From: Escherichia coli
GTDB taxonomy: Bacteria; Pseudomonadota; Gammaproteobacteria; Enterobacterales; Enterobacteriaceae
DNA: 35,452 nucleotides
Strand: one strand, 5' to 3'
Assembly: GCF_003334305.1 (NCBI RefSeq)
Contig: NZ_QOWS01000033.1
Shown here piece after piece: positions 1 to 11,866 of this stretch. Numbering within the stretch: position 1 is the first letter of the stretch; every line of letters starts with the position of its first letter. The notes below the pieces were generated by a model. The model did not search any database, was not told the origin of the DNA, and was given only the letters and a program-made list of their open reading frames with translations. A program made the position numbers and the translations under genes.

Positions 1-14
1 TTGGTTTAGGAGAA
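1..14. repeat. Left crossover site of the invertible tail-fibre segment; only one half-site plus the centre is visible at the window edge
   Basis: TTGGTTTAGGAGAA is the reverse complement of 1585-1598 (TTCTCCCAAACCAA) with 13/14 matches. On both copies it encodes the shared peptide (V)GLGE. Confidence 0.6.
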
Positions 15-497
15 GGCTCTGCATTACCGGTTGGGGTGCCTGTTCCGTGGCCTTCAGCCACTCCGCCAACAGGCTGGCTGAAATGCAATGGTGCGGCTTT
101 TTCTGCTGAAGAATACCCGGAACTGGCAAAGGCTTACCCGACCAATAAATTGCCTGATTTACGTGGTGAGTTTATTCGTGGCTGGGATGATGAACGTGGT
201 GTGGATAGTGGGCGAACTCTGCTTTCATCGCAAGGAGATGCTATTCGAAACATTACTGGCGGTTTTGGTCAGTTGCGCGTAAACAGCGAAATTAATGCAA
301 TTGTCGATGTTCAAAGTGTGAGTGGGGCTTTTTACGGAGGTACCTCAGTCCGGAATAACATCAATGTGTCTATGACATACGCTAATGACCGAAAAATCCG
401 ACAAGATGTTCACTTCTCGGCGGCAAATGTTGTTCCAACAGCAAATGAAAATCGTCCACGTAACATCGCCTTTAATTATATTGTGAGGGCCGCATGA
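1..497 (+). CDS. Tail fibre protein gpH, C-terminal variable (receptor-binding) part; 5' end outside window
   Basis: The frame is open from base 3 (..GLGEGSALPVGVPVPWPS..). It has a tail-collar-type motif PTGWLKCNGAAFSAEEYPELAKAY..LPDLRGEFIRGW. The stop overlaps the start of the Tfa gene (ATGATGA). Confidence 0.85.
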   Translation, partial: GLGEGSALPVGVPVPWPSATPPTGWLKCNGAAFSAEEYPELAKAYPTNKLPDLRGEFIRGWDDERGVDSGRTLLSSQGDAIRNITGGFGQLRVNSEINAIVDVQSVSGAFYGGTSVRNNINVSMTYANDRKIRQDVHFSAANVVPTANENRPRNIAFNYIVRAA

Positions 498-1102
498 TGA
501 ATAAAGCTGTATTAAATAGCAAACTCATTGCCATAAAAGCGGGAGACATTATCATTTATAATTATGATGGTGAAACGCGGGAATATATTTCTACATCAAC
601 TGAATATCTCGCTGTCGGCGTCGGTATCCCGGCATGTTCTTGTTTAGATGCTCCGGGCTCAAACAAAGCTGGTTATGCAATTTGTCGTTCTGTAGATTTA
701 AACTCATGGGAATATGTGCCAGACCATCGCGGTGAAGTTGTCTATAGTACCGAAACGGGAGATACCAAAGAAATCACAGCTCCGGGTGATTACCCTGAAA
801 ATACAACCATTATCGCCCCATTAACGCCATACGATAAATGGGATGGTGAGAAATGGGTGACCGATACTGAGGCACAGCATAGCGCCGCAGTAGACGCGGC
901 AGAAGCACAGCGTCAGTCACTGATTGATGCTGCAATGGCTTCCATCAGTCTGATTCAGCTGAAATTACAGGCCGGACGGAAGTTGATGCAGGCAGAAACA
1001 ACCCGGCTTAACGCCGTGCTGGATTACATTGACGCGGTGACGGCAACAGATACCAGCACCGCGCCTGATATTATTTGGCCTGTATTCCCTGAGACTGATT
1101 AA
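494..1102 (+). CDS. Tail fibre assembly chaperone (gpG / Tfa family)
   Basis: 202-aa ORF directly coupled to H. Typical Tfa sequence (..YNYDGETREYI..WEYVPDHRGEVVYSTETG..PLTPYDKWDGEKWVTD..). Confidence 0.9.
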   Translation: MMNKAVLNSKLIAIKAGDIIIYNYDGETREYISTSTEYLAVGVGIPACSCLDAPGSNKAGYAICRSVDLNSWEYVPDHRGEVVYSTETGDTKEITAPGDYPENTTIIAPLTPYDKWDGEKWVTDTEAQHSAAVDAAEAQRQSLIDAAMASISLIQLKLQAGRKLMQAETTRLNAVLDYIDAVTATDTSTAPDIIWPVFPETD

Positions 1103-1331
1103 CCTCAATTAGTATTGGTTCGCCTTTCTCATTAATTGTTAGCTCCATGCCCTGAGGAATTTCTGTCATAGTAAAAAACCAGTTGTCCTCCGGTAATTCA
1201 ATAGCCCCGGTCACGTCATGAAGACCGGGGATTACTTCAGTCAAAGTAACTGGATTAAACAGGCGCACAATAAACCCTCCAGGAAAAAGCATTTGATGAT
1301 GGTCTGCCGTCGTACATCTGGCAGCGGGCAT
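1071..1331 (-). CDS. Small ORF in the inverted half of the cassette; possible alternative tail-fibre chaperone (start uncertain, internal ATG at 1292)
   Basis: It occupies the position where Mu/P1/e14-type cassettes carry the second chaperone (U'). It is only 73-86 aa, has no convincing SD, and overlaps the upstream cassette ORF and the convergent end of G. Confidence 0.3.
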   Translation of the reverse strand: MPAARCTTADHHQMLFPGGFIVRLFNPVTLTEVIPGLHDVTGAIELPEDNWFFTMTEIPQGMELTINEKGEPILIEVNQSQGIQAK

Positions 1332-1599
1332 AAAAGCCGGTATTTGTTACCTGATCATCCACGATCATTGAAACATGAACATTATTAGGTGTGCTCTCGT
1401 AATCCGTTCTTATTCTTTCCGCGATACTGATAAAACGTGAAAGTTTAGGCAGTGCAATTGGGTAAACAACTTTAGCCAGTCCATTATCATTAGATCCACC
1501 GGTTCCAAATACTTCTATTGCACCGTCTGACCAGCGTATCCATGCACCATTGGCATTAGCTCCTCGCTGAATGACATATCTGGCTTCTCCCAAACCAAC
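1255..1599 (-). CDS. Silent alternative tail-fibre C-terminal cassette (Hv'), expressed only after inversion
   Basis: The minus-strand frame reads ..VGLGEARYVIQRGANANGAWIRWSDGAIEVFG..FSWRVYCAPV*. It begins at the same VGLGE joint as the expressed copy. The GxW..W.DG..(Q/V)xG...F.W pattern is typical of phage fibre tip domains. The ATG at 1638 lies outside the invertible segment and is probably not used. Confidence 0.7.
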   Translation of the reverse strand, partial: VGLGEARYVIQRGANANGAWIRWSDGAIEVFGTGGSNDNGLAKVVYPIALPKLSRFISIAERIRTDYESTPNNVHVSMIVDDQVTNTGFYARCQMYDGRPSSNAFSWRVYCAPV

Positions 1600-1610
1600 G
1601 TTTAAGAAAA
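1585..1610. repeat. Right crossover site (gix/hix/cix/pix-like 26-bp site)
   Basis: TTCTCCCAAACCAACGTTTAAGAAAA has two imperfect 12-bp half-sites around a central AA. About 19/26 bases match the hix-type sequence TTCTTGAAAACCAAGGTTTTTGATAA as I recall it. It is inverted relative to bases 1-14 and sits just upstream of the invertase gene. Confidence 0.7.
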
Positions 1611-1665
1611 TGCAGAGGTAACAGCTAACTGGCATCATCTCCGGTTTTTATTCAGGGGGATGATC

Positions 1666-2232
1666 ATGCTTATTGGCTATGTACGCGTGTCAACAAATGA
1701 CCAGAACACCGATTTGCAACGTAATGCACTGAACTGCGCGGGATGTGAGCAGATTTTTGAGGACAAAATCAGTGGCACTAAGTCCGACAGACCGGGGCTG
1801 AAAAAACTACTCAGGACACTATCGGCAGGAGACACGCTGGTTGTCTGGAAGCTGGACAGGTTGGGGCGCAGTATGCGGCATCTTGTTACGCTGATAGAAG
1901 AGTTGCGCCAGCGTGGTGTGAATTTCAGAAGCCTGACTGACAGTATTGATACCAGTACCCCAATGGGTCGTTTCTTTTTTCATGTCATGGGTGCCCTGGC
2001 TGAAATGGAACGCGAACTGATAGTTGAACGTACCAGGGCAGGGCTGGCTGCAGCTCGTGCCAAAGGCAGAGTAGGTGGACGCCGTCCTAAGTTGACCACC
2101 GAACAGTGGGCACAGATTGGGCGTTTACTCGAGGCCGGAGAATCAAGACAGCGTATTGCACTGATTTTTGATGTAGGCGTTTCTACCATTTATAGAAAAT
2201 TTCCGGCAAATAAGATCAATGAATCCCCCTGA
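1666..2232 (+). CDS. Serine DNA invertase, Pin/Gin/Cin/Hin family
   Basis: MLIGYVRVSTNDQNTDLQRNAL..GDTLVVWKLDRLGRSM..MGRFFFHVMGALAEMERELIVERT..GGRRPKL..STIYRKF is near-identical in pattern to Pin/Gin. The ORF track starts 2 codons earlier (1660), but family members start MLIGY. Confidence 0.95.
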   Translation: MLIGYVRVSTNDQNTDLQRNALNCAGCEQIFEDKISGTKSDRPGLKKLLRTLSAGDTLVVWKLDRLGRSMRHLVTLIEELRQRGVNFRSLTDSIDTSTPMGRFFFHVMGALAEMERELIVERTRAGLAAARAKGRVGGRRPKLTTEQWAQIGRLLEAGESRQRIALIFDVGVSTIYRKFPANKINESP

Positions 2233-2280
2233 ATCAGCATTATGTTGATTATCCCTGCAAGCAGACAAATACCGTTATTT

Positions 2281-2298
2281 TGTGTGAATAACGACACA
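2281..2298 (+). promoter_or_regulatory. Candidate Ogr-dependent late promoter element (TGT-N12-ACA dyad) for the FI-FII-E-T-U-D operon
   Basis: TGTGTGAATAACGACACA fits the TGT-N12-ACA dyad described for P2/186/P4 late promoters. It lies 77-94 nt upstream of the FI ATG. Confidence 0.5.
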
Positions 2299-2374
2299 AC
2301 TGCGCTTAGCTGTTTGTCAGGCACAATCACTTCAACATAGGGCGAAGCCTAATCCAATCAGGAGGTTCGCCACT

Positions 2375-3547
2375 ATGGCTCAGGATTACCACCACGGGGT
2401 GCGCGTTGTTGAAGTCAACGAAGGCACCCGATCTATTACCACGGTGAGCACCGCCATCGTGGGTATGGTCTGCACGGGCGATGATGCCGATGCAAAAATG
2501 TTTCCTCTTAATAAACCCGTGCTGATCACTGATGTGCTGACTGCCAGCGGTAAAGCGGGTGAGTCAGGTACTCTGGCCCGTTCGCTGGATGCCATCGCTG
2601 ACCAGGCAAAACCCGTGACCATTGTTGTGCGTGTGCCGCAGGGTGAAACGGAAGACGAAACCACGACCAATATCATCGGCGCAGTGACTGCTGAAGGTAA
2701 AAAAACAGGTATGAAAGCCCTGTTATCTGCCCAGTCACAGCTCGGCGTTAAACCGCGCATTCTCGGCGTGCCAGGCCACGACACCAAGGCGGTAGCTACT
2801 GAGTTGCTGAGCGTGGCGCAAAGCCTGCGTGGATTTGCTTACCTGTCAGCGTATGGCTGCAAGACAGTGCAGGAGGCGATCACTTACCGCGAAAACTTCA
2901 GCCAGCGCGAAGGGATGCTGATCTGGCCTGACTTTACTGGCTGGGACACGGTGCTGAATGCCGAAGCAACGGCATATGCCACCGCCCGTGCGCTTGGTCT
3001 GCGCGCCAAAATTGACGAGCAGACCGGATGGCACAAAAGCCTGTCCAACGTGGGCGTGAACGGTGTCACCGGAATTTCTGCAGATGTGTTCTGGGATCTG
3101 CAGGACCCGGCAACCGATGCAGGTCTGCTGAACCAGAACGACGTCACCACGCTTGTGCGTAAAGACGGTTTCCGCTTCTGGGGTTCCCGCTGCCTGAGTG
3201 ATGACCCGCTCTTTGCCTTCGAAAACTACACCCGCACGGCGCAGGTGCTGATGGACACGATGGCAGAAGCACACATGTGGGCGGTGGATAAACCGCTTAA
3301 CCCGTCGCTGGCCCGCGACATTATCGAAGGTATCCGCGCCAAAATGCGCAGCCTGGTCAGTCAGGGCTATCTCATTGGTGGTGATTGCTGGCTGGATGAG
3401 TCGGTGAACGACAAAGACACGCTGAAAGCCGGAAAACTCACCATCGACTACGACTACACGCCAGTGCCGCCACTTGAAAACCTGATGCTGCGTCAGCGCA
3501 TCACCGATCAGTACCTGGTGAATTTCGCCAGCCAGGTCAGCGCGTAA
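2375..3547 (+). CDS. Contractile tail sheath protein (gpFI)
   Basis: 390-aa ORF preceded by AGGAGG. The sequence [13 protein letters not shown].. is the characteristic P2 FI-type N-terminus, and the position in the operon fits. Confidence 0.95.
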
Positions 3548-3556
3548 GGGGACAAC

Positions 3557-4072
3557 ATGGCATTACCACGCAAATTAAAACACCTGAACCTGTTTAACGA
3601 CGGGAACAACTGGCAGGGGATCGTTGAGTCGCTGACGCTGCCGAAATTTACCCGCAAATATGAGAAGTATCGCGGCGGCGGAATGCCGGGTGCGGTGGAT
3701 GTGGATCTGGGGCTTGATGACAGTGCGCTGGACACAGAATTTTCCATTGGTGGTACTGAATTGCTGCTGTTTAAACAGATGGGTAAAGCCACGGTGGATG
3801 GCATCCAGCTGCGCTTTACCGGCTCTATTCAGCGTGACGATACCGGGGAAGTGCAGGCCGTGGAGCTTGTCGTGCGTGGACGTCACAAAGAAGTGGATTC
3901 CGGCGAGTGGAAGACGGGCGAAAGCAACACCACCAAAGTGACCAGTACCAACAGCTACGCGAAGCTGACCATCAATGGTGAGGTGCTCTATGAAGTGGAC
4001 CTTATCAACATGGTGGAAATTGTGGACGGTGTGGACCTGATGGAAGCGCACCGCAACGCCCTCGGCCTCTGA
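3557..4072 (+). CDS. Tail tube protein (gpFII)
   Basis: 171-aa ORF 10 nt after FI. MALPRKLKHLNLFNDGNNWQG.. is a P2 FII-type sequence. Confidence 0.95.
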   Translation: MALPRKLKHLNLFNDGNNWQGIVESLTLPKFTRKYEKYRGGGMPGAVDVDLGLDDSALDTEFSIGGTELLLFKQMGKATVDGIQLRFTGSIQRDDTGEVQAVELVVRGRHKEVDSGEWKTGESNTTKVTSTNSYAKLTINGEVLYEVDLINMVEIVDGVDLMEAHRNALGL

Positions 4073-4126
4073 TATATCTGAACGGCGCGGGATACCGCGC
4101 CAGAACCCAATTGACAGGACAGCAAA

Positions 4127-4429
4127 ATGAGCGATAAGCAGACTGAAAAGACCATTCAACTGGATACCCCCATCAAGCGCGGTAAAACAGAAATCACCGA
4201 AATTGTGCTGCGTAAACCGCAGTCCGGTGCGCTACGCGGTACACGCCTGCAGGCCATTATGGATATGGATGTAAACGCGATGATGACCGTGATCCCCCGC
4301 ATCTCCAGTCCGGCACTGACTGCACAGGAAATTGCAGAGATGGACCCGGCAGATCTCACTGCCATGTCGGTTGAGGTTGTCACTTTTTTGTTGAAGAAGT
4401 CGGTGCTTGCCGGTTTACCGACAGCCTGA
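4127..4429 (+). CDS. Tail assembly chaperone gpE
   Basis: 100-aa ORF between the tube and tape-measure genes. It contains the slippery site near its 3' end. Confidence 0.9.
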   Translation: MSDKQTEKTIQLDTPIKRGKTEITEIVLRKPQSGALRGTRLQAIMDMDVNAMMTVIPRISSPALTAQEIAEMDPADLTAMSVEVVTFLLKKSVLAGLPTA

Positions 4430-4563
4430 CGGTTGACGATCTGGTGGCAGATATCGCCACCATTTTTCACTGGCCGCCATCCGTTACTGACGTTATGCCG
4501 CTGACCGAAGTGCTGGAATGGCGGTATAAAGCGATTCAGAGAAGCGGGGCCAACGATGAGTGA
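4127..4563 (+). CDS. gpE+E' frameshift-extended tail chaperone (join 4127..4389, 4389..4563)
   Basis: Hand translation of the -1 frame after the heptamer gives VEEVGACRFTDSLTVDDLVADIATIFHWPPSVTDVMPLTEVLEWRYKAIQRSGANDE*. The TGA at 4561-4563 overlaps the T start. Confidence 0.8.
4384..4390 (+). other. -1 programmed frameshift slippery heptamer T TTT TTG
   Basis: TTTTTTG sits in the frame T.TTT.TTG of gpE, the same heptamer reported for P2 E/E+E'. The -1 frame stays open to 4563. Confidence 0.8.
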
Positions 4564-7500
4564 TAACAACCTGCGTCTGCAGGTCATTCTTAATGCGGTT
4601 GACAAGCTCACCCGCCCATTTCGATCTGCGCAGGCCAGTTCAAGAGAACTGGCTGCTGCTGTCAAAAAATCCCGCGATGCAATAAAGCAGCTTGATCAGG
4701 CCGGGAGCAGTCTGGACAGCTTCCGAAAGCTGCAGGCAGAAAATCAGAAATTAGGCGACAGGCTGAACTATGCCCGCCAGCGTGCAAATTTGCTCAGTCA
4801 GGAACTGGGAGCGATGGGGCCGCCTTCGCAACGTCAGGTTGTTGCTCTGGGCCGTCAACGGCTGGCTGTTCAGCGCCTGGAAGAACGCCAGAAAAAGCTG
4901 CAGCAGCAGACGGCGCTTGTGCGTGCTGAACTGTACCGGGCGGGAATTTCTGCGAAAGACGATGCGGGAGCAACTGCCCGTTTAGCCCGTGAAACATCAC
5001 GTTATAACCAGGAACTTTCGAAACAGGAGGCGCGGCTGAAGCGACTGGGGGAAGCTCAGCGCAGGATGAATGCAGCGCGTGCCAGTTATGCCCGTTCGCT
5101 GGAGGTGCGTGATCGTATTGCAGGTGCCGGAGCCACCACCACGGCTGCAGGGCTGGCAATGGGTGCGCCAGTGATGGCGGCAGTAAAAAGCTATACCAGC
5201 ATGGAAGATGCCATGAAAGGTGTGGCAAAGCAGGTCAATGGTCTGCGTGACGATAATGGCAACCGCACTGCACGTTTTTATGAAATGCAGGATGCCATCA
5301 AGGCTGCCAGCGAACAGTTGCCGATGGAAAACGGTGCGGTGGACTTCGCTGCACTGGTTGAAGGTGGTGCGCGCATGAACGTCGCAAACCCTGACGACAG
5401 CTGGGAAGATCAGAAACGTGACCTGCTGGCCTTCGCCAGTACGGCAGCAAAGGCGGCAACAGCCTTTGAGCTGCCAGCGGATGAACTGTCAGAAAGTCTG
5501 GGGAAAATCGCCCAGCTCTACAAAATCCCCACCCGCAATATTGAACAGCTCGGTGATGCGCTGAACTATCTGGATGATAACGCCATGTCGAAAGGGGCAG
5601 ACATCATTGATGTGATGCAACGTCTGGGCGGTGTGGCTGACCGTCTGGATTATCGTAAAGCGGCGGCGCTGGGTTCCACCTTCCTGACACTGGGCGCTGC
5701 GCCGGAGGTTGCAGCCAGTGCAGCAAACGCGATGGTGCGTGAATTGTCCATTGCCACCATGCAAAGCAAGAGTTTCTTTGAAGGGATGAATCTGCTGAAA
5801 CTCAATCCTGAAGTGATTGAAAAGCAGATGACGAAGGATGCGATGGGAACCATCCAGCGCGTGCTGGAGAAGGTAAACGCGCTGCCGCAGGACAAGCGCC
5901 TGTCTGCCATGACTATGTTGTTTGGTAAAGAGTTTGGCGATGACGCGGCGAAACTGGCAAACAACCTGCCGGAACTGCAGCGTCAGTTAAAACTGACAGC
6001 GGGCAATGATGCGCTTGGCTCCATGCAGAAAGAATCCGACATTAACAAGGATTCACTTTCTGCGCAGTGGTTGCTGGTCAAAACCGGAGCGCAGAACACC
6101 TTCAGCAGCCTGGGCGAAACGCTGCGCCAGCCGCTGATGGATATTCTGTACACGGTGAAAAGCGTCACGGGGGCGTTGCGTCGCTGGGTGGAAGCTAACC
6201 CGGAACTGACAGGCACACTGATGAAAGCATCGGCTGTTGTGGCTGCGGTTACCGTCGGCCTCGGCACCTTAGCGGTGGCGCTGGCTGCAGTGCTGGGGCC
6301 GCTGGCAGTGATCCGTCTGGGATTCTCTGTGTTGGGTATCAAAACGTTATCTTCCGTTACGGCAGCAGTAACTCGAACCAGCAGCGCGTTGTCCTGGCTG
6401 GCTGGCGCACCACTGGCACTGCTGCGACGCGGGCTTGCTTCATCGGGCAACGCCGCAGGTTTACTTACTGCGCCGTTGTCGTCTTTGCGCCGCACGGCAT
6501 CACTGACGGGAAATGTCCTGAAAACTGTAGCAGGTGCGCCGGTTGCACTTTTGCGGTCTGGATTATCCGGTTTACGTGCGGTTGCTGTGATGTTTATGAA
6601 TCCACTGGCAGCACTACGCGGCGGGCTGGCTGCCGCAGGCACGGTGCTGCGAGTACTGGCATCTGGTCCACTGGCGATGTTGCGCGTTGCCCTGTATGCC
6701 GTATCTGGTCTGTTAGGTGCTCTGCTCAGTCCGATAGGTCTTGTGGTTACTGCACTGGCGGGTGTGGCACTGGTTGTCTGGAAATACTGGCAACCCATCA
6801 CCGCATTTCTCGGTGGCGTGGTGGAAGGATTCAAAGCGGCGGCAGGTCCCATCAGTGCAGCGTTCGAACCGCTTAAGCCTGTGTTCCAGTGGATTGGTGA
6901 CAAAGTGCAGGCGCTGTGGGGCTGGTTTACTGATCTGCTGACGCCCGTTAAGTCGACTTCTGCCGAACTGCAGAGCGCAGCGGCAATGGGGCGACGATTC
7001 GGGGAGGCACTGGCGGAAGGGCTGAATATGGTCATGCATCCGCTGGACTCCCTGAAATCCGGCGTTTCCTGGTTGCTGGAGAAGCTCGGCATTATCAGTA
7101 AAGAGGCCGCAAAGGCAAAACTGCCGGAAAGCGTGACGCGTCAGCAACCTGCGACGGTGAATGCAGACGGTAAAGTGATGATGCCATCGGGTGGTTTTCC
7201 GTCATGGGGATATGGCTTTGCGGGGATGTATGACAGCGGCGGCTATATCCCGCGCGGGCAGTTTGGCATCGTCGGTGAAAACGGGCCGGAAATTGTTAAC
7301 GGCCCGGCAAATGTGACCAGCCGGAGAAATACAGCTGCACTGGCTGCCGTTGTTGCCGGAATGATGGGCGTTGCTGCCGCGCCTGCAGAGCTTCCACCGT
7401 TGCACCCTTTGGCACTTCCCGCGAAAGGCGGCGAAGCGATGGTGAGTCGTGCAGCCACTGTGCCGCCCGTTCAACGGATTGAGGCACCGATGCAGATCAT

Positions 7501-7633
7501 CATTCAGACGCAGCCAGGACAAAGTGCGCAGGATATTGCGCGGGAGGTGGCCCGCCAGCTTGATGAACGTGAACGCAGGCTGAAGGCAAAAGCCAGGAGT
7601 AACTACAGCGATCAGGGGGGATACGACGCATGA
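4556..7633 (+). CDS. Tail tape measure protein (gpT)
   Basis: 1025-aa ORF with a coiled-coil N-terminus and a central hydrophobic repeat block. Its position after E/E' fits. Confidence 0.95.
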   Translation: MSDNNLRLQVILNAVDKLTRPFRSAQASSRELAAAVKKSRDAIKQLDQAGSSLDSFRKLQAENQKLGDRLNYARQRANLLSQELGAMGPPSQRQVVALGRQRLAVQRLEERQKKLQQQTALVRAELYRAGISAKDDAGATARLARETSRYNQELSKQEARLKRLGEAQRRMNAARASYARSLEVRDRIAGAGATTTAAGLAMGAPVMAAVKSYTSMEDAMKGVAKQVNGLRDDNGNRTARFYEMQDAIKAASEQLPMENGAVDFAALVEGGARMNVANPDDSWEDQKRDLLAFASTAAKAATAFELPADELSESLGKIAQLYKIPTRNIEQLGDALNYLDDNAMSKGADIIDVMQRLGGVADRLDYRKAAALGSTFLTLGAAPEVAASAANAMVRELSIATMQSKSFFEGMNLLKLNPEVIEKQMTKDAMGTIQRVLEKVNALPQDKRLSAMTMLFGKEFGDDAAKLANNLPELQRQLKLTAGNDALGSMQKESDINKDSLSAQWLLVKTGAQNTFSSLGETLRQPLMDILYTVKSVTGALRRWVEANPELTGTLMKASAVVAAVTVGLGTLAVALAAVLGPLAVIRLGFSVLGIKTLSSVTAAVTRTSSALSWLAGAPLALLRRGLASSGNAAGLLTAPLSSLRRTASLTGNVLKTVAGAPVALLRSGLSGLRAVAVMFMNPLAALRGGLAAAGTVLRVLASGPLAMLRVALYAVSGLLGALLSPIGLVVTALAGVALVVWKYWQPITAFLGGVVEGFKAAAGPISAAFEPLKPVFQWIGDKVQALWGWFTDLLTPVKSTSAELQSAAAMGRRFGEALAEGLNMVMHPLDSLKSGVSWLLEKLGIISKEAAKAKLPESVTRQQPATVNADGKVMMPSGGFPSWGYGFAGMYDSGGYIPRGQFGIVGENGPEIVNGPANVTSRRNTAALAAVVAGMMGVAAAPAELPPLHPLALPAKGGEAMVSRAATVPPVQRIEAPMQIIIQTQPGQSAQDIAREVARQLDERERRLKAKARSNYSDQGGYDA

Positions 7634-8115
7634 TGATGGTGCTGGGATTGTACGTGTTTATGCTGCGCACCGTGCCGTATCAGGAGCTGCAGTATCAACG
7701 CAGCTGGCGACATGCGGCAAACAGCCGGGTAAACCGACGTCCGTCCACGCAGTTTCTGGGACCGGACAACGACATGCTGACGCTTTCCGGTGTTCTTATG
7801 CCGGAGATAACAGGTGGCAGGCTGTCGTTGCTGGCACTGGAGCAGATGGCAGAACAGGGGAAAGCATGGCCCCTGATTGAAGGCAGCGGCACGATTTATG
7901 GCATGTATGTGATTGAGGGACTGAATCAGACTAAAACGGAGTTTTTCCGCGACGGTATGCCGCGCCGGATTGAGTTCACCCTGTCGCTCAAACGGGTGGA
8001 TGAATCCCTGTCCGATATGTTCGGTGATCTCAGTGCGCAACTGAATAATCTGCAGGAAACGGCAACGTCTGCCTTAAGCGATATCAGTAAAACGGTGGGA
8101 GGGCTGCTGTCGTGA
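7630..8115 (+). CDS. Tail protein gpU
   Basis: 161 aa, ATGA overlap with T. MMMVLGLYVFMLRTVPYQELQ.. is a P2 gpU-type sequence. Confidence 0.9.
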   Translation: MMMVLGLYVFMLRTVPYQELQYQRSWRHAANSRVNRRPSTQFLGPDNDMLTLSGVLMPEITGGRLSLLALEQMAEQGKAWPLIEGSGTIYGMYVIEGLNQTKTEFFRDGMPRRIEFTLSLKRVDESLSDMFGDLSAQLNNLQETATSALSDISKTVGGLLS

Positions 8116-9212
8116 ATTTCAGCTCTGAACTGCTTAACAAAAGCAACAAAACTCCGGCATTCAGCATCAGTATTGAGGGCAGGGATATCACTACTGTGCT
8201 GGATAACCGCCTGATGAGTCTGACTCTGACGGACAATCGGGGCTTTGAAGCAGACCAGCTTGATCTGGAGCTGGACGATGCCGACGGGAAAATCGTGCTG
8301 CCGCGCCGTGGTGCGGTCATTACGCTGGCGCTGGGCTGGAAGGGGCAGCCGCTTTTCCCGAAAGGGGCATTCACGGTGGACGAGATTGAACACACTGGCG
8401 CACCGGACCGCCTGACTATCCGGGCGCGAAGTGCTGATTTTCGGGAAACGCTGAATACCCGCCGTGAAAAATCGTGGCACAAGACCACCATTGGGGAAGT
8501 GGTGAAGGAGATAGCCGCGCGGCACAAGCTGAAGATGGTACTGGGTAAAGACCTGTCGGATAAGCTCGTGGAGCATATAGACCAGACTAATGAGAGTGAC
8601 GGTAGTTTTCTGATGCGGCTGGCGCGCCAGTACGGTGCTATTGCGTCGGTGAAAAATGGCAATCTGTTATTCATCCGGCAGGGACAGGGCAAAAGTGCCA
8701 GCGGTAAACCACTGCCGGTGATCACTATCACACGTAAGGACGGCGACAGTCACCGCTTTACCCTGGCAGATCGCGGAGCCTATACGGGCATAATTGCCAG
8801 CTGGTTGCATACCCGCGAACCCGCGAAGAAAGAAAGCACCACGGTGAAGCGTAAGCGCAGGACTAAGAAGCAGAAGAAAGAGCCGGAAGCGAAGCAGGGC
8901 GATTACCTGGTGGGTACGGATGAAAACGTGCTGGTACTTAATCGCACTTATGCCAACCGGAGCAACGCTGAACGGGCAGCGAAAATGCAGTGGGAACGCC
9001 TGCAACGCGGCGTTGCGTCATTCTCGCTACAACTGGCGGAAGGGCGGGCAGATCTCTACACGGAAATGCCAGTGAAAGTCAGTGGCTTTAAACAGCCGAT
9101 AGATGATGCGGAATGGACCATTACGACTCTGACACATACCGTCAGCCCGGATAATGGTTTTACGACCAGTCTTGAGCTTGAAGTGAAGGTTGATGATCTC
9201 GAAATGGAATGA
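8112..9212 (+). CDS. Tail/late protein gpD
   Basis: 366 aa, GTGA overlap with U. The ..ISIEGRDIT..LMSLTLTDNRGFEADQLDLELDD.. motif is typical of gpD. Confidence 0.9.
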   Translation: MNFSSELLNKSNKTPAFSISIEGRDITTVLDNRLMSLTLTDNRGFEADQLDLELDDADGKIVLPRRGAVITLALGWKGQPLFPKGAFTVDEIEHTGAPDRLTIRARSADFRETLNTRREKSWHKTTIGEVVKEIAARHKLKMVLGKDLSDKLVEHIDQTNESDGSFLMRLARQYGAIASVKNGNLLFIRQGQGKSASGKPLPVITITRKDGDSHRFTLADRGAYTGIIASWLHTREPAKKESTTVKRKRRTKKQKKEPEAKQGDYLVGTDENVLVLNRTYANRSNAERAAKMQWERLQRGVASFSLQLAEGRADLYTEMPVKVSGFKQPIDDAEWTITTLTHTVSPDNGFTTSLELEVKVDDLEME

Positions 9213-9302
9213 TTCTTCACAATGGAGAACTTTTAAGTTTGAAAAATGGAATAATGCGATATCATTATTGTGAATTTAGCAAAAATGGGGAGAACTCGAA
9301 AA

Positions 9303-9521
9303 ATGATGATTTGCCCACTGTGTGGAAGTGCCGCCCATACTCGCAGCAGTTTTCAGGTATCTTCATTGACCAAAGAGCGTTACAACCAGTGCCAGAACAT
9401 TAACTGCAGCCATACTTTTGTTACCCATGAAACTTTTGTTCGTTCGATTGCAACGCCAAAAGAGTCAAATCCGGTTCAGCCGCATCCTCATAAATTTAAA
9501 CAGGTGGGTTTGCCGATTTAA
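9303..9521 (+). CDS. ogr: Ogr late-gene transcriptional activator (zinc-finger)
   Basis: MMICPLCGSAAHTRSS...KERYNQCQNINCSHTF has the Cys-X2-Cys...Cys-X4-Cys pattern of P2 Ogr. Starting at 9303 gives 72 aa. The ORF track start at 9270 and the ATG at 9285 are alternatives. Confidence 0.9.
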   Translation: MMICPLCGSAAHTRSSFQVSSLTKERYNQCQNINCSHTFVTHETFVRSIATPKESNPVQPHPHKFKQVGLPI

Positions 9522-9585
9522 ATGGCGACATAACTACATGATTTAAAACTATACTTTTCTATAAGTTGAGGTTAAATTAACAATG

Positions 9586-9762
9586 CCTGACGTTAGCGGG
9601 GATTTATCCCCACTCCGTAGATATGTAGTTTGTCGCTTTGCGACTGCGGACCGATTACCTGATTGCCATGTAATCGGACGCCGACTTGTTAAGCTTTCTG
9701 GGCTAACTGGTTGTTATTTTTTATTTAGTTAGGGCCATGCGCTTGCGCTAAGAGACGTCAGG
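9586..9762 (+). ncRNA. Candidate structured RNA upstream of the RT (retron msr/msd-like or DRT-type template RNA); ends not determined
   Basis: There is no credible ORF. A long-range helix pairs 9586-9598 (CCTGACGTTAGCG) with 9746-9751 + 9756-9762 (CGCTAA / CGTCAGG), leaving a 4-nt bulge. It encloses abutting hairpins at 9598-9611, 9614-9650, 9651-9677 (8-bp stem CCGATTAC/GTAATCGG) and 9701-9736. Folded by eye only. Confidence 0.45.
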
Positions 9763-9782
9763 TATCTATGGAGGAACAAGTT

Positions 9783-9956
9783 ATGGATACAAACGAACTT
9801 GGCTTAGTTAAGGCGCGTGTTGAACTGATCACCGCTATGCTCAAATGCGCAACCGCGTTTGTTGGCTTAGTTGGTGCGGTTTACGCCGTTCTTAACATGG
9901 CCTTCAACTACAACAATTTAACTCATGACAATAGAAGTTCAAAGGTGGGAAGATAA
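9783..9956 (+). CDS. Small hydrophobic protein (57 aa, one predicted TM helix), candidate effector/toxin partner of the RT
   Basis: GGAGGA at 9770-9775 lies 7 nt before the ATG at 9783. The sequence is MDTNELGLVKARVELITAMLKCATAFVGLVGAVYAVLNMAFNYNNLTHDNRSSKVGR, with a hydrophobic core CATAFVGLVGAVYAVLNMAF. Its 3' end overlaps the RT start by 32 nt. It could instead be part of the ncRNA. Confidence 0.5.
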   Translation: MDTNELGLVKARVELITAMLKCATAFVGLVGAVYAVLNMAFNYNNLTHDNRSSKVGR

Positions 9957-10698
9957 ATTTGAGATTAAGCCCGGGGTTTGGGTTTATGTCCCAAGCGTTG
10001 AGGCACGTAAAGTCGGAGGGAAGATACTTCAGGCTGTCAGAAACAAGTGGATTCCGCCACTCTATTTTTACCATCTAAGAACTGGTGGGCATCTTAAAGC
10101 TGCCAGATTACACTTAAAAAGTGATTTTTTTGCCGTTGTTGATATTAAACAATTTTTTCAGTCAACGAGCCGTAGTCGTATCACCCGTGATCTAAAGAGC
10201 TACTTCACCTATTCTCAAGCGCGGGAAATCTCAACATTTTCAACTGTAAGAAACTTGTCCCATAGTCCACATAAGCATGTCCTCCCTTTTGGTTTTGTTC
10301 AATCTCCAATACTTGCAACCCTCTGCTTAGATAAAAGTTATTTTGGTAGCTTACTACGCCGATTGAACAAACATCATGATCTCAAGCTAAGTGTGTTTAT
10401 GGATGATGTGATCATCTCGTCAAACGATTTGGCCCAATTACAAGCGGCTTACGACGAAGCACTAGTGGCAATGCGTAAATCTGGTTATCAAGCCAACATG
10501 AGTAAAACTCAGGCACCATCGTCAAAGATTAGCGTGTTTAATTTAACTTTGAGTAAGGGAGTTATGAAAGTCACATCTCAGAAAATGAGTGACTTCCTGA
10601 TTGATTTCTATTCAAGCAATTATGAGCCGCACAGAATAGGGGTCAAAAACTACGTCGAAGCTGTTAATCCAGGGCAAGCGAAACTCTTTAAGTTGTAA
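9925..10698 (+). CDS. Minimal reverse transcriptase (257 aa), retron/DRT-like, unclassified
   Basis: RT motifs seen in order: KVGGKIL (motif 1-like), FFAVVDIKQFFQSTS (motif A, Asp at 10141-10143), LPFGFVQSPILATLCL (motif B'), LSVFMDDVIISS (motif C, FMDD at 10396-10407), GYQANMSKTQ (motif D), ISVFNLTLS (motif E). Only ~50 aa follow motif E. Confidence 0.85.
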   Translation: MTIEVQRWEDKFEIKPGVWVYVPSVEARKVGGKILQAVRNKWIPPLYFYHLRTGGHLKAARLHLKSDFFAVVDIKQFFQSTSRSRITRDLKSYFTYSQAREISTFSTVRNLSHSPHKHVLPFGFVQSPILATLCLDKSYFGSLLRRLNKHHDLKLSVFMDDVIISSNDLAQLQAAYDEALVAMRKSGYQANMSKTQAPSSKISVFNLTLSKGVMKVTSQKMSDFLIDFYSSNYEPHRIGVKNYVEAVNPGQAKLFKL

Positions 10699-10767
10699 TT
10701 GCGATCGCATGTAGTAGCAACTGGGCTTGACTGAATGTCTGCCGCCATTTTGCCGCCACTACTAAAG

Positions 10768-10795
10768 AAAAAAGGGCTACGCTTTCACGTAACCC
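10768..10795 (-). terminator. Rho-independent terminator immediately after ssrA
   Basis: The minus strand reads GGGTTACG-TGAAAG-CGTAGCCC followed by TTTTTT. It begins 12 nt after the CCA end. Confidence 0.75.
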
Positions 10796-10806
10796 CTTGA
10801 TTTATT

Positions 10807-11169
10807 TGGTGGAGCTGGCGGGAGTTGAACCCGCGTCCGAAATTCCTACATCCTCGGTACTACATGCTTAGTCAGTCTTTACATTCGCTTGCCAGCTGCG
10901 GACGGACACGCCACTAACAAACTAGCCTGATTAAGTTTTAACGCTTCAACCCCAGGCAGGGCTTCCACGCGATCTCTTTTGGGTTTGACCTCTCTTGATC
11001 CCCGTCCTAAGAGCGGAGGCTAGGGAGAGAGGGCTCTAAGCAGGTTATTAAGCTGCTAAAGCGTAGTTTTCGTCGTTTGCGACTATTTTTTGCGGCTTTT
11101 TACGAGGCCAACCGCCCCTCGGCATGCACCTTGGGTTTCGCAAATCCCGTCGAATCCAGAATCAGCCCC
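10807..11169 (-). ncRNA. ssrA: tmRNA (SsrA), 363 nt
   Basis: The reverse complement reads GGGGCTGATTCTGGATTCGACGGGATTTGCG...GGTTCAACTCCCGCCAGCTCCACCA. The tag ORF GCAAACGACGAAAACTACGCTTTAGCAGCTTAA (ANDENYALAA*) is at 11080-11048. Confidence 0.98.
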
Positions 11170-11183
11170 AATGTGTAAAGGTA

Positions 11184-11192
11184 AGTATACCA
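11184..11192 (-). promoter_or_regulatory. Probable ssrA extended -10 promoter element
   Basis: The minus strand has TGgTATACT, ending 14 nt upstream of the mature 5' GGGG. This is consistent with a short RNase P-processed leader. The -35 is poor. Confidence 0.4.
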
Positions 11193-11383
11193 GATTTATG
11201 AGCGCCATGACCAGCCTCAATGGCGTTATCGTTAAAGATTTAGCACCCATGTAGCCTGATTTTTATTCGATTAAGCAATGGGATGGCAACATTTGTGTCG
11301 GATGTGATAGCCAATAAGATGTTCATTCGCGCCGCCGGAGAGGGAGGCGCGGTGAGGAACTGGTCAATAATTGGAGTGCAGGT

Positions 11384-11866
11384 TTAACGGTGGGCGTTTT
11401 TCATGATACGTGCTTTATCCACCTGCCATTCGCGTTCTTTGATATCTGAACGTTTATCGTGCTGTTTTTTACCTTTGGCGACGCCGATTTTCACTTTGCA
11501 CCAGGCATTTTTCCAGTACAGGGAGAGCGCCACTACGGTATAGCCTTCTCGATTGACGCGACCGTACAATGAGTCCAGTTCGCGTTGGTTGAGAAGTAAC
11601 TTGCGGGTACGGGTAGGATCGCACACCACATGCGTGGAGGCCACGGCCATTGGCGTGATGTTAGCGCCAAACAGAAATGCCTCTCCGTCACGCAGAAGGA
11701 CGTAGCTGTCGCTGATATTGGCTTTTCCTGCGCGCAGGGATTTAACCTCCCAGCCTTGCAGGGCAAGTCCCGCTTCGAACTCTTCTTCGATAAAGTATTC
11801 GTGACGGGCGCGCTTGTTAAGCGCGATGGTCGCTGAACCAGGTTTATGTGCTTTTTTCTTCGTCAT
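11384..11866 (-). CDS. smpB: SsrA-binding protein SmpB
   Basis: The 160-aa sequence [45 protein letters not shown].. is recognised. It lies adjacent to ssrA. Confidence 0.98.

Follow-up and report, generated by a model that had tools for sequence, protein, structure and literature searches.

Genes and sites at the locus

The window analysed here is a stretch of 35,452 nucleotides from an Escherichia coli chromosomal contig (NZ_QOWS01000033.1); positions 1 to ~9,520 belong to the tail module of a P2-like prophage and form its right half. The first 2,232 positions of the window hold two opposed tail-fibre cassettes, two crossover sites in inverted orientation and the gene of a serine DNA invertase. 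This region is very probably part (the right-hand three quarters) of a tail-fibre switch with two states, driven by the invertase, in a P2/Fels-2-like prophage. Gene names were taken from the Prokaryotic Genome Annotation Pipeline (PGAP) annotation of E. coli A7 (NZ_CP028767), a complete genome that is 100% identical to window positions 1-9340. The features of the switch are the following (ORF, open reading frame; E, expectation value):

1-1598: invertible segment, with the crossover by the P1 convention between 1|2 and 1597|1598; exactly inverted between Okinawa prophages
1-14, plus strand: inner part of the left crossover site, consisting of the central TT (1-2) and the inner half-site GGTTTAGGAGAA (3-14)
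3-497, plus strand: variable C-terminal part of an H-type fibre, a collar tip of 164 residues and stop (Pfam Collar, E 4e-16)
494-1102, plus strand: TfaE-like tail-fibre assembly chaperone of 202 residues (Pfam Caudo_TAP, E 2.5e-30)
1071-1268, minus strand: conserved 65-residue ORF directly after the alternative tip
1255-1599, minus strand: alternative fibre C-terminal part of 114 residues and stop, silent in the sequenced orientation
1585-1610, plus strand: right crossover site of 26 bp, TTCTCCCAAACC-AA-CGTTTAAGAAAA
1666-2232, plus strand: Din-family serine DNA invertase of 188 residues (Pfam Resolvase, E 2e-53, and HTH_7, E 1e-15)
1684-1755, no strand: predicted recombinational enhancer (sis-type, Fis), homologous to nucleotides 19-90 of P1 cin, which are annotated as an enhancer

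The constant fibre part lies outside the segment. Two opposed variable ends with their accessory genes lie inside it, and each of them is in frame in one orientation. The invertase and the cassette fill the interval between G and FI (the start of FI is at 2375). P2 carries fun(Z) there, and comparison with P2 confirmed this placement, which had been proposed in a sequence-only reading of the stretch.

Crossover sites

Across the 35 kb, the Din-family consensus TTCTCNNAAACCNNGGTTTNNGAGAA is matched with three or fewer mismatches at 1585-1610 and nowhere else (0 expected, none in shuffled sequences). When 1585-1598 is reverse-complemented, it agrees with bases 1-14 (TTGGTTTAGGAGAA) at 13 of 14 positions. 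As the sequence-only reading had noticed, the two are inverted relative to each other, and no other such pair exists in the window (0.02 expected). The left site is cut by the contig end: window base 1 is the first T of the central TT dinucleotide, so the proposal that the left crossover centre coincides with the first bases of the window was correct. Extension to the left in the identical genome of A7 recovered the full 26-bp site, TTCTCACATACC-TT-GGTTTAGGAGAA, the second half-site TTCTCACATACC being located just left of the window. The centres, TT on the left and AA on the right, are complementary, and the sites are therefore compatible for inversion. The left site has one mismatch to the Din consensus and the right site two. 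When compared with cix, gix and the sites of e14 and Fels-2, both are 26-bp imperfect dyads, in inverted orientation and with matching central dinucleotides.

No third crossover site was detected in A7, where only two are present at four or fewer mismatches from the start of H to the invertase. The element is therefore a switch with two states, unlike a shufflon. Systems with multiple inversions (shufflon-like, p15B Min, the three-repeat P2-like locus of enteropathogenic E. coli) were rejected because they need at least three sites and the window has one full site. The window was also considered as a circular phage contig that supplies the left half-site itself; this was rejected because it ends in clpB and an rrn promoter region.

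The inner half-sites encode a GLGE joint and both fusions are in frame. A shared VGLGE joint had been proposed. GLGE is indeed common to both copies, but the valine is not: the expressed left copy has Leu (CTT), reading ...TYLGLGEG. NVGLGE is read only at the unexpressed right site, and e14 stfE has the same NVGLGE artefact.

Inversion between near-identical prophages

The predicted inverted sequence was built and searched against complete E. coli genomes, using matched forward and inverted queries of 2,940 nucleotides. OkiPb01678 matches the predicted inverted form over all 2,940 nucleotides at 99.9%. This genome (inverted) and OkiPb01712 (forward), both bovine and from Okinawa, are identical over 16,940 bp but for the exact reverse complement of 1-1598. 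The pair first differs at window position 8 and last at 1591, and the outer flanks diverge directly beyond TT. This leaves only the 7-bp TTGGTTT, with the central TT inside it, as the place of the crossover. Inversion at the central dinucleotide, which had been assumed from knowledge of the Din family, is thus supported by genome comparison and not by biochemistry.

Chicken isolates carry a 93%-identical relative of the prophage. Four such chromosomes, each of 5,067,659 bp, have the segment in the forward (three) or inverted (one) orientation. DG342-2 and DG341-1 are identical over 18,955 bp save for an exact 1,613-bp inversion between perfect 15-bp repeats. Further sibling strains that differ in orientation are 82.0311/82.0312, 61/64, SWYHX138.33gt/SWYHX138.261ft, M7424 and M00057 versus M11957, and E. 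coli W-lineage records. Among the records with at least 80% coverage, 41 are forward and 29 inverted. A search for both orientations had been suggested together with the statement that the prophage is currently locked in one of them. "Locked" is the wrong word; both are found in closely related genomes.

The element of strain A28 (NZ_CP028747) differs from the window by 1 base in 9,044. At positions 6701-7001 of the extracted locus the H constant part is joined to ~300 nucleotides of inverted junction, which replace window 1-296. The first 156 nucleotides of this junction are perfect and the remainder contains nine single-base insertions or deletions, after which the sequence continues forward from window position 297. 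The chimera truncates the annotated fibre gene in this "complete" genome. The A28 tail-fibre region is probably a consensus of mixed-orientation reads.

Contig breaks at the switch

Two Logan short-read contigs from unrelated runs (SRR18143845 and SRR6362195; 1,640 and 1,568 bp) contain nothing but the segment. They begin with TTGGTTTGGGAGAAG and end with CTTCTCCCAAACCAA, being cut exactly at TTGG...CCAA. In ~20 homologue clusters of the 65-residue ORF the longest contig measures 1.55-1.72 kb. In a de Bruijn graph containing both orientations each segment end would have two neighbours, ...ACC (H) and ...ACG (the reverse-complemented right flank), and because of these an unbranched path would stop at the first shared base. 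The left end of the window is the same base as in those contig breaks, and both window ends are at branch points of the assembly graph. A minor inverted subpopulation in the source reads is the likeliest explanation of where the window starts. A second copy of the H constant part was rejected as the cause of the left contig end, as A7 has a single matching place and no repeat of the region. Stand-alone segment contigs of 1.57-1.64 kb are a usable signature for active switches of the same type.

The invertase and its predicted enhancer

The invertase ORF spans 1660-2232 and all homologues start with MLIGY, which corresponds to position 1666 and agrees with the gene limits of the sequence-only reading. 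With ~190 residues, a resolvase domain and a C-terminal helix-turn-helix, the protein has the composition of Din-family serine recombinases. Over the first 180 residues it is identical to PinE of e14 at 87%, to the Fels-2 invertase at 86%, to Cin at 79% and to Gin at 77%, and the Gin structure 3UJ3 matches residues 1-184 (E 3e-93). The invertase of Escherichia phage 500465-1 is identical, and nearly identical proteins are found in several Peduoviridae records. The catalytic Ser9 is present (in YVRVSTNDQ). The gene is intact and its ratio of nonsynonymous to synonymous substitution rates (dN/dS) against the DG342-2 copy is 0.07. It is located outside the segment, 55 bp past the right site, and reads away from it.

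In Hin, K47/R48/K51 and Q151/R154/L155 contact Fis and enhancer DNA and are specific to Fis-dependent invertases (McLean et al., PMC3798978). These contact residues are conserved in the window invertase as K46/K47/R50 and Q150/R153/L154, with a numbering one below that of Hin (the offset was read from the Gin alignment). His106, the counterpart of Hin H107, is wild type; mutation of H107 gives an activated enzyme in Hin (Hin-H107Y, PMC4817059).

Codon use in six invertases is consistent with an enhancer inside the gene. Identical residues are encoded by identical codons with a frequency of 0.81 in nucleotides 1-36 and 0.63 in nucleotides 73-108, compared with 0.31-0.48 elsewhere. This suggests that the coding sequence contains two DNA elements, ~50 bp apart. 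The predicted enhancer begins 86 bp from the right crossover point and the first conserved block is ~95 bp from the same point; in Salmonella the distance from hixL to the proximal Fis site is ~100 bp (PMC3798978). Promoter and terminator scans of positions 1-2400 gave counts no better than shuffled sequence, and no invertase promoter was therefore placed.

The expressed cassette

In A7 the plus-strand tip is fused in frame to the 349-residue H constant part, giving an annotated H protein of 514 residues. In addition to the Pfam Collar domain, the tip matches phrog_523 (tail collar fibre, E 1e-74). Its sequence matches in PDB are the short tail fibre 9cuy (E 3e-27), T4 gp37 and T4 gp12. The "E" cassette of e14 is the counterpart of this cassette. 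The tip is 64% identical to StfE: 63 residues at the start and 14 at the end are the same in both, and the middle diverges. The chaperone is 88% identical to TfaE (its PGAP name in A7 is tfaE). The dN/dS of the chaperone against the DG342-2 copy is 0.20. The two Pfam assignments, Collar and Caudo_TAP, are in line with the original description of this half as a collar-domain fibre end followed by a Tfa chaperone.

The silent cassette

The minus-strand half had been described as an unrelated fibre tip. This is correct for the 114-residue tip, but the description omitted the 65-residue ORF at 1071-1268. In an inverted genome the minus tip is fused in frame to the constant part, and the product is annotated as a tail protein of 463 residues. 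The dN/dS of the tip against the DG342-2 copy is 0.077. Pfam Gp53-like_C matches it weakly, below the cut-off, and a sequence search against PDB returned no match. Relatives of the tip are found only in Enterobacterales, and most of them are annotated, in the unfused reading, as hypothetical proteins of 126-127 residues. Escherichia phage S164 is the only deposited phage with a related minus cassette.

An AlphaFold model of the minus tip, made as a monomer of the expected trimer, has a predicted local distance difference test score of 81.5 and a predicted template modelling score of 0.73. Its fold matches that of the foot at the C-terminus of R1/R2 pyocin fibres (E 2e-4 to 8e-4, template modelling score 0.56-0.62) and that of AP22 gp53. 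The tip is therefore predicted to fold like the foot of these fibres (6CL6 and 6CXB for the R-pyocin foot, 4MTM for AP22 gp53), at a sequence identity of just 16-17%. R-pyocins are P2-type tails, and the R-pyocin foot and AP22 gp53 are carbohydrate-binding tips. By analogy, it is a reasonable guess that the minus tip may bind lipopolysaccharide. Alignment of both tips to known receptor-binding domains had been proposed: the plus tip has sequence matches to T4 gp37 and gp12, and the model of the minus tip resembles the pyocin foot and AP22 gp53.

The GTG start of the 65-residue ORF overlaps the stop of the minus tip, to which the ORF is translationally coupled. At its other end it converges with tfa on the opposite strand, with an overlap of 32 nucleotides (1071-1102), and its last ~10 residues are the least conserved. 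MRLFNP...W30 and F32 are invariant. Homologues form 123 clusters of ~57-65 residues across Enterobacterales, none of which has a Pfam domain. The ORF itself has no Pfam match either and so lacks the Caudo_TAP domain that defines Tfa proteins. It matches phrog_5400, a family without an assigned function, over positions 1-66 of the 145-position profile. Fold searches against PDB and BFVD returned nothing significant; the best match was a "tail fiber assembly protein" with 60 residues from Pantoea phage LIMEzero (E 0.05, not significant). The idea that the ORF is a truncated gene was rejected, because all 123 clusters have a length of ~57-65 residues, phage S164 has the same short form and dN/dS is low. 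Against the DG342-2 copy this ratio is 0.11-0.21, which indicates purifying selection. The ORF is presumed to encode an accessory or assembly protein of the minus cassette.

In the same comparison dN/dS is 0.07-0.21 for all five genes (the four cassette genes and the invertase), and all of them are thus under purifying selection. With a low ratio in both cassettes, both orientations are maintained.

Comparison with known invertible segments

The P segment of e14 in K-12, with its invertase PinE, has the same order: fibre constant part, cassette, inverted cassette and an invertase that reads away. The right site is the same at 25 of 26 positions, and the TT/AA centre and the TTGGTTTGGGAGAA core are common to both. 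The e14 repeats TTGGTTTGGGAGAAGG were inverted by PinE and PinQ in experiments (PMC12529663). However, e14 is what remains of a lambdoid prophage and its StfP constant part is short, whereas the present element has a P2/Fels-2 H protein and the left outer half-site of Fels-2. The second cassette also differs: the minus tip has 26% identity to StfP over 72 residues, and the 65-residue ORF takes the place of TfaP.

Fels-2 has the same architecture (J, I, H, G, G', H', invertase, FI), with the prophage end next to ssrA. The two elements share the left outer half-site TTCTCACATACC in full, the H constant part at 75% identity and the invertase at 86%. SopE-phi-type Salmonella P2-like prophages, which are grouped with Fels-2, also have an invertase between G and FI and are integrated at ssrA. 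Unlike here, the central dinucleotide of Fels-2 is TC/GA, and both variable cassettes are unrelated to those of Fels-2. TT/AA is also the centre in e14 and P1, and the hix centre is TT/AA as well, while TC/GA is found in Fels-2 and Mu. The sites are therefore a mosaic, the left outer half-site being that of Fels-2 and the right site that of e14 at 25/26.

The G segment of Mu (with Gin) and the C segment of P1 (with Cin) follow the same logic, a constant Sc part with alternative Sv and Sv' ends, each with its own assembly gene. Both have 26-bp sites of the same consensus and an enhancer in the 5' part of the invertase gene. In Mu the invertase is 54-55 bp past the right site and reads away, as here. 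In P1, by contrast, cin reads towards the segment and overlaps cixL. The segment is shorter here (1.6 kb) than in Mu (~3 kb) or P1 (4.2 kb), and the tips and chaperones of Mu and P1 are unrelated in sequence to those described above, save for the Caudo_TAP C-terminal domain. Tail-fibre inversion in P2-like prophages of enteropathogenic E. coli E2348/69 was demonstrated by sequencing and polymerase chain reaction, with both forms present in clonal cultures (Goldberg et al. 2014, PMC4272514). One of those loci has three repeats and four variants, compared with the two sites found here.

The prophage and its surroundings

The prophage part of the window contains, in order, the fibre tip, Tfa, the inverted cassette, the invertase, FI, FII, E/E', T, U, D and ogr. 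When A7 was compared with P2 and Fels-2, the full P2-like (Peduoviridae) order V, W, J, I, H, G ... FI, FII, E, E', T, U, D, ogr was recovered. Beyond the prophage follow a small reverse-transcriptase locus, ssrA, smpB and more chromosomal genes (bamE and recN are annotated) up to clpB, and the 3' end of the window is the promoter/leader region of an rrn operon. The features at the prophage end are:

9270-9521: ogr
9783-10698, plus strand: reverse-transcriptase-domain protein of 257 residues between ogr and ssrA (best PADLOC match, retron type VI reverse transcriptase, E 7e-18)
10807-11169, minus strand: ssrA (transfer-messenger RNA gene), directly past the ogr end of the prophage, as in Fels-2

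A 57-residue ORF precedes the reverse-transcriptase gene, and the pair is found at the prophage end beside the attachment site. It is probably an anti-phage cargo locus. None of the known retron non-coding RNA families was found in window 9200-11400. In the Okinawa strains, where the same prophage is near-identical, and in the DG strains with the 93% relative, the prophage adjoins ybjL and not ssrA.

A TGT-N12-ACA dyad is present at 2281-2298, 77-94 nucleotides upstream of FI. We take TGT-N12-ACA to be the form of the Ogr/Delta activator sites of P2-family late promoters; the annotated pF site of P2 is not closely similar. If the dyad is an Ogr/Delta site, the F operon would retain its own late promoter downstream of the inserted invertase.

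Interpretation and alternative explanations

In the preferred reading, that of a working host-range switch, the late V-operon transcript would read the constant 349-residue N-terminal part of H, just left of the window, and then cross the left site into whichever cassette faces H. In the sequenced orientation this would be the collar tip (3-497) followed by the TfaE-like chaperone (494-1102). After inversion it would be the lectin-like "foot" tip (1599-1255) followed by the 65-residue accessory ORF (1268-1071). Fis and enhancer dependence and the strand-exchange chemistry would be those of the family: invertase dimers would bind both 26-bp sites, a Fis-bound enhancer inside the 5' coding region of the invertase would activate the enzyme, and cleavage at the central TT/AA would be followed by rotation of one tetramer half by 180 degrees. 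Neither in sequence nor in predicted fold are the two tips related, and they would probably recognise different receptors, by which inversion would change the host range.

Several observations weigh against this reading. Both sites deviate from the consensus at conserved positions: the left one has ATACC instead of AAACC, the right one CGTTT instead of GGTTT; the first deviation also occurs in Fels-2 and the second in e14. The assembly runs through the right junction of the window without a break, so the inverted subpopulation in the source reads must have been minor or was resolved by the assembler. Switching in the source isolate is something we infer from the break point of the contig and from near-identical relatives. 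In A7, the annotation of the 19 kb to the left of the portal gene lists no integrase, no repressor and no replication gene. That side holds two IS3-family insertion sequence elements (one of them IS3-like), a 1,283-residue hypothetical protein and ypjA fragments. The A7 prophage may therefore be defective, a remnant with late genes only, in which case "host range" is perhaps never exercised.

Among the alternatives, a more far-reaching one, which we regard as unlikely, is that the minus cassette is an undescribed tip/helper pair, in which the foot tip is served by a 65-residue beta protein that would represent a new and minimal kind of factor for fibre assembly or capping, or else that the switch is a host anti-phage device of the e14 StfE2 type in a defective prophage.

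A takeover by the host, taken by itself, is very improbable. The prophage would then be defective and the cell would make an alternative fibre fusion or by-product that blocks adsorption of other phages, in the manner reported for e14 StfE2. Inversion of the e14 P segment by PinQ or PinE is reported to yield the StfE2 chimera, which blocks T2 adsorption (PMC12529663). The crossover core and the plus cassette are e14-like, the A7 copy has no recognisable early genes nearby, and a second probable defence gene, the retron-type reverse transcriptase, is found at the prophage end. However, the P2-type late gene set is complete and conserved from portal to ogr, as a virion- or tailocin-producing element needs. 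The same element is also present at another integration site (ybjL) in other strains, as would be the case for a mobile phage. Such a takeover would in any event add to a host-range switch instead of replacing it.

A frozen relic, in which the parts look right but inversion has stopped and the orientation differences are old, or due to general recombination or assembler choice, has hardly any likelihood. It would be compatible with a window that shows one orientation and a right junction that was assembled through, with a possibly defective A7 prophage, and with the fact that assemblers can mis-orient segments flanked by inverted repeats (A28 shows consensus artefacts at this very place). Against it, two independent forward/inverted pairs have 100% identical flanks, over 16.9 kb in one and 19 kb in the other, and the inversions must therefore be very recent. 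With a length of only 7-15 bp, the shared repeat would not mislead a long-read assembler, and RecA-dependent recombination needs longer repeats. The end points coincide exactly with the Din-type core, an intact invertase (dN/dS 0.07) is present, and the stand-alone segment contigs require both junction types among the reads.

Implications

The locus works, but it is an ordinary case of a phage device that is already well known from Fels-2, e14 and Mu. Its practical consequences are that the switch breaks short-read assemblies at a predictable base and can corrupt a long-read consensus, as in A28, and that the silent cassette is left annotated as a "hypothetical protein". The mosaic of a Fels-2 H constant part and left outer half-site with the core, the right site and one cassette of e14 illustrates cassette exchange at crossover sites between unrelated prophages.

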